Positions 15,204 through 17,026 of a DNA stretch of 23,248 nt are shown piece by piece. Under the pieces are notes generated by a model that worked only from the letters and a program-made list of their open reading frames with translations, searched no databases and was not told where the DNA came from. Source of the DNA: a virus (lineage: Duplodnaviria; Heunggongvirae; Uroviricota; Caudoviricetes); IMG/VR virus record IMGVR_UViG_2537562015_000009. One strand, written 5' to 3'. Each line of letters opens with the position of its first letter. Position 1 is the first letter of the stretch. The translations under genes were made by a program, and so were the position numbers.

Positions 15204-15227
15204 AACCCGCTTAAATGCGGGTTTTTT
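15204..15227 (+). terminator. Intrinsic terminator downstream of Q (tR'-like)
   Basis: AAACCCGC-TTAAAT-GCGGG followed by TTTTTT; preceded by -10-like TATAGT (15193-15198). Confidence 0.55.
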
Positions 15228-15257
15228 GCTTAACTCTGTGGACCTTTTTATCTGTAG

Positions 15258-15282
15258 TTGTAAGATATGGATATTCTTACAA
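15258..15282. promoter_or_regulatory. Palindromic operator-like site upstream of kinase gene
   Basis: TTGTAAGATAT-GG-ATATTCTTACAA, about 25 bp near-perfect inverted repeat ending 18 nt before the kinase ATG; overlaps -10-like TACAAT (15278-15283). Confidence 0.4.
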
Positions 15283-15300
15283 TTTAGGTCGGTGAGCTTA

Positions 15301-16065
15301 ATGGAAGAACAGCACGGTAATTACTTTATAAAACGAATTCAGTTGATTGGAAGGGGTGCATTTGGCTTTGTTGAACACGTTAAGGTTTACAACCTCAACA
15401 AGGGTGAATGTGGGGATTATGCTAGAAAGGTTTTAGCCCCCGAAAAACCAGAGCTTTTGGCGCAAATAGAGCAGTTTAGAAGGCGTTTTAAAAGGGAGGT
15501 CGTGTATCAATCACATTGCGTACATAGCAATATTGTTCCTATTTATTTGTGCGATTTGTTTGCCGAGAATCCATGGTTCATTATGGATAAAGCAGAATGT
15601 GATCTTGAGCACGAAATAACGAACAACCTTCTTACAACAGATCAAAAAATTTCAATAGTGAAAATGGTATTAGATGGTGTAGCTCACATCCATGCGAAAG
15701 GCTATTTACACAGAGATATAAAACCATTTAATGTCTTGCGATTTAGCGACGGAACATACAAGGTGTCTGATTTTGGTCTGGTAAAAGATACAAATCCCGA
15801 AGGGGATACCACTAAATTGACCGAGATCGGTACCCGTATGGGAAGTACAAGATATATGGCTCCCGAGATTTTATATAATGCCGAGTATTCAGTTAAGACT
15901 GATGTTTATGCGGTGGGGCGGTTAATTGAGGACTTAAATTTAGATGATAAAAAAATAAAGCCTATCATAGCGAAGTGTACCAGGATGGATAAAGATGATA
16001 GATATCAGACAATAGATGATGTGGCGTTTGATTTTGTGCATTCTTTTTTAAGGAGTGAGTCATGA
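15301..16065 (+). CDS. Eukaryotic-like (Hanks-type) Ser/Thr protein kinase, single-domain
   Basis: G-loop IGRGAFGFV, Lys in YARKVL, catalytic loop HRDIKPFN, DFG in VSDFGLV, APE in YMAPE; 254 aa from ATG 15301 (GGTGAG RBS); AT-rich relative to flanks. Confidence 0.85.
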   Translation: MEEQHGNYFIKRIQLIGRGAFGFVEHVKVYNLNKGECGDYARKVLAPEKPELLAQIEQFRRRFKREVVYQSHCVHSNIVPIYLCDLFAENPWFIMDKAECDLEHEITNNLLTTDQKISIVKMVLDGVAHIHAKGYLHRDIKPFNVLRFSDGTYKVSDFGLVKDTNPEGDTTKLTEIGTRMGSTRYMAPEILYNAEYSVKTDVYAVGRLIEDLNLDDKKIKPIIAKCTRMDKDDRYQTIDDVAFDFVHSFLRSES

Positions 16066-16805
16066 TTCAGCTGATAGCGACTTCATCATTCTCGTATCCA
16101 AAAGAACCAGGTAGGGTCAACGAAGATTCATTGCTTCCTCCCAAAATTGTAGGGGATGGCATCTTATTTGCCGTAGCTGATGGTGTAGGTTCATACACTG
16201 GTGCCAGTCAGGCTTCATCAATGGCAATTGCTGAACTTTCAGCATTGACAAGCTTATCTTTTGACACAGTTCCGGATGTATTTGATGAAGTTAAGCGAAA
16301 GGTTATGTCGTTAGCTGATGTTAATGATGAGTTCGATAAAGCTGCTACTACACTTACGTTTTGTTATGTTTGTGATAGCGGAATTATTATTGGTCATATT
16401 GGTGATTGTCGTTTGTATTGCATTGGAGAGAAGAAAGCATACCAATTGACGAAGGACGATACCAGGCATCAGATGCTAATTGATCAGAATATTTTTAAAC
16501 CCAGAGATTTGAAGGATAAACCGGGCAAAAATATCTTAACGACGGCTATAGCCTCAAATGTTGATATGGAATACGACTGTGATTTTATCACATGGAAAGA
16601 TTTACCTAGTATTAACGGGGTATATCATCTGTGTATCATGTCTGATGGGGTTCATAACGTTTGGGAAAAACGCCCCAGATTTACATCAAATACGATGAGT
16701 AATAGTCAGAAGTTTTCTAATGGCATTTTGCGTCGTATAGAGAGAGCCGGACCTGATGATGACTTTTCTTTAGTAAGTATAATGGTGCGTGTGACGTCAG
16801 ATTAG
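16062..16805 (+). CDS. PP2C-family (PPM) Ser/Thr protein phosphatase
   Basis: Motifs RVNEDS, FAVADGVGS, GHIGDCRLY, IMSDGV, GPDDDFS; ATG overlaps the kinase stop (ATGA), so probably translationally coupled. Confidence 0.8.
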   Translation: MIQLIATSSFSYPKEPGRVNEDSLLPPKIVGDGILFAVADGVGSYTGASQASSMAIAELSALTSLSFDTVPDVFDEVKRKVMSLADVNDEFDKAATTLTFCYVCDSGIIIGHIGDCRLYCIGEKKAYQLTKDDTRHQMLIDQNIFKPRDLKDKPGKNILTTAIASNVDMEYDCDFITWKDLPSINGVYHLCIMSDGVHNVWEKRPRFTSNTMSNSQKFSNGILRRIERAGPDDDFSLVSIMVRVTSD

Positions 16806-16878
16806 TTGTATAAACTCAGTAGGGAATGCTAATTTCACATACAACATAGTTAAAGAAAACTTAATTTTAATGTAAAAA

Positions 16879-16901
16879 GGCTGCCCTCAGGCGGTCTTTT
16901 T
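16879..16901 (+). terminator. Intrinsic terminator after kinase/phosphatase operon
   Basis: GGCTGCC-CTCA-GGCGGTC followed by TTTTT. Confidence 0.5.
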
Positions 16902-17026
16902 ATGCTCGAAAATTGATGCAGTACGTTAAACGCGCTGGTGGTTGCGAATACCGGTCTTTCAGCTTGCTGGCTTTTTAGACAAGAGTTATTGGTATGTCAC
17001 GTTAACCAGAAAAGGGAAAAAGACAT

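Follow-up and report, generated by a model that had tools for sequence, protein, structure and literature searches.

Prophages of the Pf, P2, P4 and Mu-like types carry the kinase-kinase-phosphatase module KKP (PfpC-PfkB-PfkA; Guo et al. 2024, PMC11341870). The KKP kinases are jointly toxic, the PP2C phosphatase of the module acts as antitoxin, and the system protects against lytic phages; Gp59 of T4 inhibits the phosphatase, which releases the kinases and aborts infection, and a second function of the system is regulation through MvaU (PMC11341870). The prophage kinase Stk of 933W, which is activated on infection, excludes HK97 (PMC3681748). Here we analysed a kinase gene followed by a PP2C gene in a stretch of 23,248 nucleotides (IMG/VR record IMGVR_UViG_2537562015_000009, hereafter the window), which from its gene content and a comparison with RefSeq is a lambdoid prophage of Escherichia coli. 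The two genes form a self-contained, horizontally mobile module that is carried in this prophage as accessory cargo. By analogy, its best explanation is a superinfection-exclusion or abortive-infection (Abi) module with the kinase as toxin and the PP2C as antidote, a reading that we regard as evenly poised.

The kinase gene (15301..16065, + strand) encodes a minimal Hanks-type Ser/Thr kinase of 254 amino acids (PF00069; phrog_2361, E=2e-98). Pfam Pkinase PF00069 matched residues 12-212 with E=2e-33 and 116.4 bits, as compared with a cut-off of 31.7, and the only other Pfam match, PK_Tyr_Ser-Thr, covered the same stretch. An earlier note on this DNA had begun the block, and with it the kinase open reading frame (ORF), at a TTG at 15226. 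We moved the start to the ATG at 15301, which is almost certainly the correct one, because the N-terminus M-EE-x-GNY is found throughout the family, RefSeq uses the same start and 15226 lies within the T-tail of a terminator. In an alignment with 24 diverse homologues (43-75% identity), the residues G17xG19xF21G22, K43, E66, H137-R138-D139-x-K141-x-x-N144, D157-F158-G159, P188-E189, D201 and R234 were invariant, and the hydroxyl residues of the activation loop at positions 170, 174 and 182 were kept in 23-24 of the 24 sequences. The AlphaFold2 model was confident except for the activation loop at 162-179 (predicted local distance difference test, pLDDT, 88; predicted template modelling score, pTM, 0.85). 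Its fold was the bilobal one of kinases, and a Foldseek search of the Protein Data Bank (PDB) gave PknB, Stk1 and BTK as top matches (E=1e-14, template modelling (TM) score about 0.72). The Ser/Thr specificity of the protein, and phosphotransfer itself, are predicted from its family membership.

The phosphatase gene (16062..16805, + strand) encodes a PP2C/PPM phosphatase of 247 amino acids (PF13672; phrog_5650, E=7e-65) and is translationally coupled to the kinase by an ATGA overlap at 16062-16065, with the Shine-Dalgarno sequence AAGGAG at 16050-16055. PP2C_2 (PF13672) matched with E=2e-14 and 54 bits against a cut-off of 24, and PF00481 scored 17.7 bits, under its cut-off of 20.3. Across 24 homologues, N20, D22, D40-G41-x-G43, H112, G114-D115, R117, D132, S194-D195-G196 and D233-D234 were invariant, a set that includes all the metal-binding acidic residues of PP2C motifs 1, 2, 8 and 11 (D22, D40-G41, D195-G196 and D233-D234). 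The AlphaFold2 model (pLDDT 93, pTM 0.90) had the PP2C beta-sandwich fold, and its top Foldseek matches were PstP, Stp1 and tPphA, with TM scores of 0.75-0.79. Beyond the kinase and PP2C domains, the Pfam scan found no further domain in either protein, and hydropathy indicated no transmembrane segment, with maxima over 19 residues of 0.93 for the kinase and 1.27 for the phosphatase. Judged by sequence and predicted structure, both proteins appear to be real enzymes. Compared with the allele of strain VR50 (96% DNA identity), the ratio of non-synonymous to synonymous substitution rates was 0.04 for the kinase and 0.12 for the phosphatase; both genes are under strong purifying selection. Most of what the earlier note had read at the protein level was thus upheld: the two ORFs and their ATGA overlap are as it described them, both domain calls score above their cut-offs (116 bits for PF00069 and 54 bits for PF13672) and agree with AlphaFold2 and Foldseek, every catalytic motif that it listed is present with its catalytic residues invariant in the alignments, and neither Pfam nor hydropathy gave any sign of the sensor, transmembrane, FHA or PASTA domains that it had reported missing. 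As a separate observation, of the 565 positions of the phrog_5650 profile the phosphatase matched only 273-520, suggesting that some members have an N-terminal extension, possibly as a kinase-phosphatase fusion; among the 120 kinase homologues listed, none was such a fusion.

The contexts of the two genes were gathered by look-ups of the exact proteins and by scanning IMG/VR with a phosphatase alignment. All 80 IMG/VR contigs with the PP2C carried the kinase immediately upstream and on the same strand. The same order, kinase and then PP2C, was present in every context inspected, namely Yersinia, Pseudomonas putida, Vibrio vulnificus, Haemophilus, Xanthomonas, Enterobacter and Serratia, and also in a Raoultella-type phage, Cronobacter phage phiES15 and Escherichia phage Flotzy. 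The junction was an ATGA overlap in 9 of 12 loci, and the pair was more AT-rich than its flanks in all 12 (in Xanthomonas, a GC content of 0.42 against 0.59). Homologues of the kinase (about 250 amino acids) and of the PP2C (about 245 amino acids) occurred in the same set of Gammaproteobacteria, their match lists had at least 27 contigs apparently in common, and the pairwise identities of the two proteins were correlated (r=0.88). Kinase and PP2C are an obligate unit, inherited together and co-evolving. The earlier note had asked whether the pair is conserved in other prophages at the position downstream of Q; conservation as a unit was found in every context inspected, and the module is not tied to the position after Q. 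With 66 cluster representatives (at 50% identity) matching at E<=1e-30, about 20 of them scoring above 217 bits, the PP2C family is modest in size. Among 5,426 complete E. coli genomes, 49 carried the allele group of the window and 16 more a distant allele. No match to the locus came from a megablast search of 50,697 phage records, and relatives were found at the protein level. RefSeq already annotates the two proteins as kinase and PP2C, and PHROGs groups them as phrog_2361 and phrog_5650, so the domain observation itself is not new.

The cargo status of the pair was evident from the comparison with E. coli prophages that have an empty site. Homology to two of these (L004 and L006) extended up to position 15192 and resumed from 16874 on, which delimits an AT-rich insert of 1,681 bp on the + strand (15193..16873) consisting of a new terminator, the kinase and the PP2C. 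GC content was 0.38-0.40 over 15001-17000 and 0.50-0.57 in the flanks, or 0.39 for the insert against 0.52 for the flanks. In the empty prophages the antiterminator gene Q is followed by about 70 nt, a terminator, and then the small ORF and the methylase that follow the insert in the window. More than 3,000 E. coli genomes contained parts of this backbone from Q to the methylase, with the kinase-PP2C pair in only 48-49 of them. A further prophage had at the same site an unrelated gene of 237 amino acids with a terminator on each side (L005, 2428-3141), and other cargo after Q, likewise unrelated to the pair, comprised genes of 178 amino acids (L095, 4259-4795) and 221 amino acids (L096, 2332-2997). 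None of these three alternative cargo genes had a Pfam or PADLOC match, so they gave no ground for calling the slot after Q a defence hotspot. Presence or absence at a fixed backbone junction, together with the deviating composition, is what is seen with a lambdoid 'moron', an autonomous accessory cassette; of the promoter and terminator that such an element carries, terminators were found on both sides, and upstream of the kinase, between the first terminator and its start (15225-15300), the promoter-like matches reached only 8/12. The empty-site and alternative-cargo prophages thus vindicated the earlier note in calling the block accessory cargo after Q, and the GC values did so for its higher AT content.

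The two terminators are of different origin. The upstream one, t1 (15203..15230, + strand), has the form AAACCCGC-TTAAAT-GCGGGTTT followed by TTTTTG, with a stem at 15203-15224 of 8 bp including 5 GC pairs. The empty sites lack it and have another terminator at the equivalent distance; t1 belongs to the insert, came in with the cargo and has taken the place of the first terminator after Q. A consensus terminator scan detected t1. The downstream one (16873..16906, + strand; arms at 16873-16885 and 16890-16902, including G-T pairs) has as its homologue the terminator directly after Q in the empty-site prophages, and is the ancestral Q-proximal, tR'-like terminator, now 3' of the cargo. It was found by a repeat search and by our own stem scan, and the consensus terminator scan missed it; terminator-like sites as a class were not enriched in the region (4 found, 2.4±1.4 expected). 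Both of the intrinsic terminators by which the earlier note had bounded the block therefore exist, but as boundaries they are not equivalent, the upstream being the insert's own and the downstream ancestral. Between the stop codon of Q and the insertion point, a conserved leader (15157..15192, + strand) aligns with those of L004, L006 and L005, with TGATATTTTGCC invariant, and from this conservation it is presumed to hold the late promoter and the Q-loading region. A consensus scan of the leader gave no sigma-70 match of 9/12 or better, and a match of 8/12, TTGCAA(15141)-17-TACATT(15164), was picked by eye. Since t1 is read as a terminator that Q overrides, it most likely places the pair in a Q-dependent late transcription unit, and expression of the window copy in a lysogen would need the weak promoter-like sequences in 15225-15300.

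A palindrome, TTGTAAGA-N9-TCTTACAA, was detected by the repeat search in the 5' leader of the kinase (15258..15282, + strand). In the VR50 allele (L098) it carries a G->T / C->G double change at window positions 15264 and 15276, that is, on both arms and at paired positions, which read as RNA turns a G-C pair into U.G. Such a change would keep an RNA hairpin and not a symmetric DNA site, a hint, from a single case, of an RNA element. The palindrome was not conserved in the Raoultella-type phage or in more distant members, and a comparison of leaders revealed no conserved operator or promoter across the family. The candidate of a family-wide operator was rejected, the palindrome being absent outside close E. 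coli alleles; the control site proposed in the earlier note thus exists as a palindrome, and the control role found no support.

The position after Q is one of several that the pair occupies. When the IMG/VR loci were grouped into 30 kinase clusters at 90% identity, a Q gene lay just upstream in 5 of them, about 10 fell in the interval between the lysis cassette and terminase, and in 5 the pair was directly downstream of, and co-oriented with, a cI-type repressor (helix-turn-helix plus Peptidase_S24); the kinase clusters beyond these slots were unclassified. The upstream Q genes belonged to three Pfam families, PF06323 and PF03589 in the clusters and PF06530 in the Raoultella-type phage, and a strong terminator separated Q from the kinase in all three Q-slot lineages examined. 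In the cI-linked layout, a divergent cro/YdaS-like gene and replication genes lie on one side, and cI, kinase, PP2C, Gam and RecT on the other. The distant E. coli allele, with about 69% DNA identity to that of the window over short stretches, shows the order transcriptional regulator, S24 peptidase, kinase, PP2C, cell-division inhibitor, Gam, Bet, exonuclease, excisionase and integrase (L184, ChlosBP-23-1, NZ_CP048603.1, 5964-8214; also L158, L129, L130 and L131), with the regulator across the divide from the run of S24 peptidase, kinase and PP2C. Read from gene order, this layout is that of lambda cI-rexA-rexB-...-gam-bet-exo, with the pair at the rex position. Elsewhere the pair was found in an integrase-proximal early region (Haemophilus), in a transposase-rich non-phage island (P. 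putida) and, outside phage, with a NACHT/nSTAND3 gene and a gene for the toxin SymE as neighbours (Xanthomonas). At least three lambdoid accessory slots, the Q-downstream one among them, hold the pair, as do non-phage islands. Separately, we observed in V. vulnificus (L091, 8001-14801) that the pair adjoins a block of small genes including a PM2-type coat protein (P2_N/P2_C), and there appears to lie beside a corticovirus-like prophage, not a tailed phage.

By analogy with KKP and 933W Stk, we propose that the kinase would be the effector and the PP2C its restraint. Unrestrained, the kinase would phosphorylate essential proteins of the host, the phage or both and halt the growth of the infected cell; the co-translated PP2C would serve as antidote by dephosphorylating the activation loop of the kinase (S/T 170, 174 and 182), the kinase substrates or both. 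An incoming phage, or the lytic programme of the prophage itself, might shift the balance towards the kinase, for example if a phage protein were to block the phosphatase, which is what has been reported for KKP; the outcome would be superinfection exclusion or abortive infection. In the slot that it has in the window, downstream of a Q-gated terminator, the pair would be transcribed when Q acts, after induction. This proposal builds on two opposed enzymes without sensors, their co-inheritance and translational coupling, their status as cargo and their recurrence in slots of exclusion genes, and is supported by the copies that stand at the lambda rexAB position in other prophages, including those of E. 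coli. Also in its favour are the intact active sites and the purifying selection on both genes, the neighbours of the pair in Xanthomonas and its survival intact in degraded prophages. The exclusion or abortive-infection role that the earlier note had entertained is accordingly the best-supported reading, and it is one drawn by analogy. The pattern of decay adds a small independent support for a kinase toxin and a PP2C antidote. Lesions confined to the kinase, with the PP2C intact, represented 3-4 independent events: strain 510016 (L183, 1843-2406) and L116 had a 10-bp deletion, L118 a frameshift and L161 a 5' truncation. No loss of the PP2C alone was found among the decayed loci; in strain SY033 (L182) three insertion sequence elements had broken Q, kinase and PP2C. 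Somewhat short of an even chance, in our view, is the broader possibility that the pair represents a distinct family of phosphorylation-based Abi/superinfection-exclusion systems across Gammaproteobacteria, the simplest kinase-toxin/phosphatase-antidote switch, which would substitute for rexAB next to cI, ride in late-operon slots and use its PP2C as a 'guard' released by an inhibitor from the invader.

Several observations weigh against a defensive role. Toxicity of the kinase is assumed, and the asymmetry of decay comprises 3-4 events, with P ~0.06 for four out of four in the kinase if both genes were equally likely to be hit. The PP2C had no significant PADLOC match, and the PD-T4-6 models among the matches of the kinase, reported in 97 of 100 P. 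aeruginosa strains, are unspecific and so have little diagnostic weight. About half of the kinase clusters (~15/30) have late-operon contexts, after Q or between lysis and terminase genes. For the window copy the main weakness is that the pair stands behind a strong terminator without a convincing promoter of its own and may be expressed only after Q has acted, a layout more in keeping with late lytic expression than with constitutive expression in the lysogen. The placement in the late operon is what would be expected of a lytic-cycle effector, a late product made after Q readthrough in which a phosphatase-buffered kinase reprogrammes host proteins (lysis timing, envelope metabolism or translation, for example) to the benefit of the phage and not of the lysogen: the terminator between Q and the kinase in every Q-slot lineage examined makes transcription from the late promoter dependent on Q, the late-operon clusters are co-oriented with their operons, and the window offers no convincing promoter of the pair's own. 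However, the pair is also found in the cI/rex slot, the Haemophilus early region and the P. putida and Xanthomonas islands, which have no late programme; it is intact in prophages stripped of lysis and head genes, the window included; and unrelated genes, too, are found at the Q-lysis and lysis-terminase junctions, which serve as general slots for cargo. We consider such an effector unlikely.

A regulatory switch between prophage and host, in which phosphorylation of a regulator such as a nucleoid-associated silencer would control lysogeny or induction of the same or co-resident prophages, has a precedent in the MvaU-mediated function of KKP (PMC11341870), and would suit a module that is AT-rich and in several members adjoins the immunity switch. 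Pfam found no DNA-binding, RNA-binding or FHA domain in the pair, whereas the kinases of KKP have cold-shock (CSD) and FHA domains, and the copies in non-phage islands argue against a phage-specific regulatory role; we regard this reading as quite unlikely. The tight coupling, the retention in decaying prophages and the kinase-only decay could also be seen in a pure addiction module, a selfish toxin-antidote pair that stabilizes its mobile element with no part in defence or development. Both partners, however, look like stable globular enzymes, nothing points to a labile antidote, and addiction leaves the recurrence in exclusion-gene slots such as the rex position unexplained; moreover, many prophage toxin-antidote pairs prove to be defensive. 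Addiction by itself is in our judgement very improbable. All three alternatives are compatible with defence.

The immediate neighbours of the pair belong to the prophage backbone. On the + strand the order of genes is DUF968, RusA, Q, kinase, PP2C, a small winged-helix ORF, a DNA methyltransferase and a tRNA cluster. The Q antiterminator gene (14467..15156, + strand; PF06323 Phage_antiter_Q, E=5e-84; antitermination protein Q in RefSeq) is backbone and not cargo, and a sequence search of the PDB gave no match for its product, so that it could not be tied to a structurally characterized Q or to a known promoter layout. The winged-helix ORF (17025..17222, + strand; phrog_331, E=2e-43) and the N6/N4 DNA methyltransferase gene (17373..18422, + strand; PF01555, E=2e-44) are likewise backbone, the former directly following the terminator in the empty-site prophages and the latter also present in them. 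ARAGORN identified four tRNA genes at 18472-18781 (+ strand), Met(CAT), Lys(TTT), Lys(TTT) and Gly(TCC), of which Rfam at its gathering threshold reported three, missing the gene at 18549-18625. The first tRNA in the prophages of strains E24377A and 503025, which by position is the CAT-anticodon gene of the window, is a tRNA-Ile according to RefSeq, and tRNA sets vary among otherwise similar prophages (Ile/Thr/Gly, Ile/Arg/Arg or Met only). Directly after the tRNAs, over 18782-19423 and 19424-22974, the prophage goes on with an ORF of 1004 amino acids for a tail fibre and a tail-fibre assembly gene; a lysis cassette, terminase and head genes are absent from the window after the tRNA cluster. 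The 1.8-kb kinase-PP2C locus was 100% identical to that in prophages of several enterotoxigenic E. coli strains and 99.9% identical to that of E24377A, whose prophage lies in the potC/potB interval and is partly degraded; strain 503025 has an identical pair in an apparently complete lambda-like prophage. The pair is thus intact in degraded prophages, including the one in the window. We also noted a sok antitoxin RNA at 11435-11610 (+ strand, Rfam 121.6 bits), presumably of a hok/sok-type locus whose counterpart in related prophages would be the hokD annotated in RefSeq, and a DicF antisense RNA at 4529-4580 (- strand, Rfam 70.8 bits), with dicB annotated nearby in related prophages; sok and DicF are typical features of Qin/Rac-like cryptic prophage backbones.

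Should the pair prove to work in exclusion, no smaller kinase/phosphatase immunity switch would be known: it has just two catalytic domains, each of about 250 amino acids, and lacks a sensor. It would be a tractable model native to E. coli and to lambdoid phages with easy genetics. It would then raise the questions of how a reversible protein modification is kept in check until infection sets it free, which targets a minimal Hanks kinase uses to stop the cell or the phage, and how one cassette can work both from cI/rex slots expressed in the lysogen and from late slots gated by Q. Defence-finding tools may label the kinase as a single-gene system and overlook its obligate PP2C partner, because generic kinase models match and PADLOC has no significant one for the PP2C. 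If the pair instead serves the late programme of the phage, it would be an unusual use by a temperate phage of a paired kinase and phosphatase late in infection.

Among described systems, the chromosomal Stk1/Stp1 (PknB/PstP-type) enzymes have the same folds and include the nearest solved structures, and the NCBIfam models Stp1_PP2C_phos (NF033484, E=1e-26) and PknB_PASTA_kin (NF033483, E=8e-30) matched, in both cases far below the equivalog cut-offs (93.5 against 230 bits and 104 against 450 bits, respectively). The pair differs from them in having no PASTA or transmembrane parts, in its reversed gene order and in being confined to mobile elements. With staphylococcal Stk2 and PD-T4-6 of E. 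coli the kinase has its Hanks-type core in common (PADLOC E=5e-28 and E=1e-34, respectively). Altogether it matched 34 PADLOC models, among them mad6, many PD-T4-6 models, Stk2 and MkoA, through the generic kinase core only: the best PD-T4-6 model was covered over positions 11-201 of 327 and Stk2 over 160-347 of 500, so no match was full length, and those defences are encoded by one gene each, with additional regions and without a phosphatase. To RexA/RexB of lambda the relation is one of position: in several prophages, those of 16 E. coli genomes among them, the pair fills the two-gene slot directly 3' of cI and before kil/gam/bet/exo, a likeness that is possibly functional too. No protein family is common to both, the only Pfam matches of the pair being to kinase and PP2C, and Rex acts through a membrane channel, not through phosphorylation. 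Like the kinase of the pair, 933W Stk is a eukaryote-like kinase of a lambdoid E. coli prophage, and its place in the immunity region is that of some members of the family; however, identity is about 26% over 68% of the kinase, 933W Stk is longer and is reported to be a tyrosine kinase, the annotation shows no partner phosphatase at or next to the matches, and the window pair lies after Q and not by cI.

The closest relative is KKP, which like the pair is a prophage-borne operon of PF00069 and PF13672 enzymes in Gram-negative bacteria and which also occurs on other mobile elements, as does the pair. KKP consists of a PP2C gene followed by two kinase genes, three in all, and the pair of a kinase gene followed by a PP2C gene; neither the ORF list nor Pfam gave a second kinase within the insert. 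The PfkA-like kinase of KKP carries a CSD and the PfkB-like kinase an FHA domain, whereas the genes of the pair, about 750 bp each, encode catalytic domains only, and Pfam gave no CSD or FHA match on the 254-residue kinase, which has no room for one. The pair also differs in occupying lambdoid slots, and it is set apart from KKP by a description of architecture and not by sequence alignment. In our literature search, which left most subscription journals outside, no study of the two-gene family surfaced, only KKP, and papers on DefensePredictor, embedded defence and E. coli defence islands do not describe the pair. The statement in the earlier note that a kinase with a cognate phosphatase at this position 'is not a described system' has been overtaken by the publication of KKP in 2024 (PMC11341870), though the pair lacks the architecture that defines KKP. 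After KKP, Stk2 and 933W Stk, a specialist would be little surprised by the pair, and its obligate pairing, the rex slot and the setting in E. coli and lambdoid phages make it a clean, testable candidate. We rate it as a minimal two-gene form of the prophage kinase/phosphatase modules, a relative of KKP rather than something wholly new.

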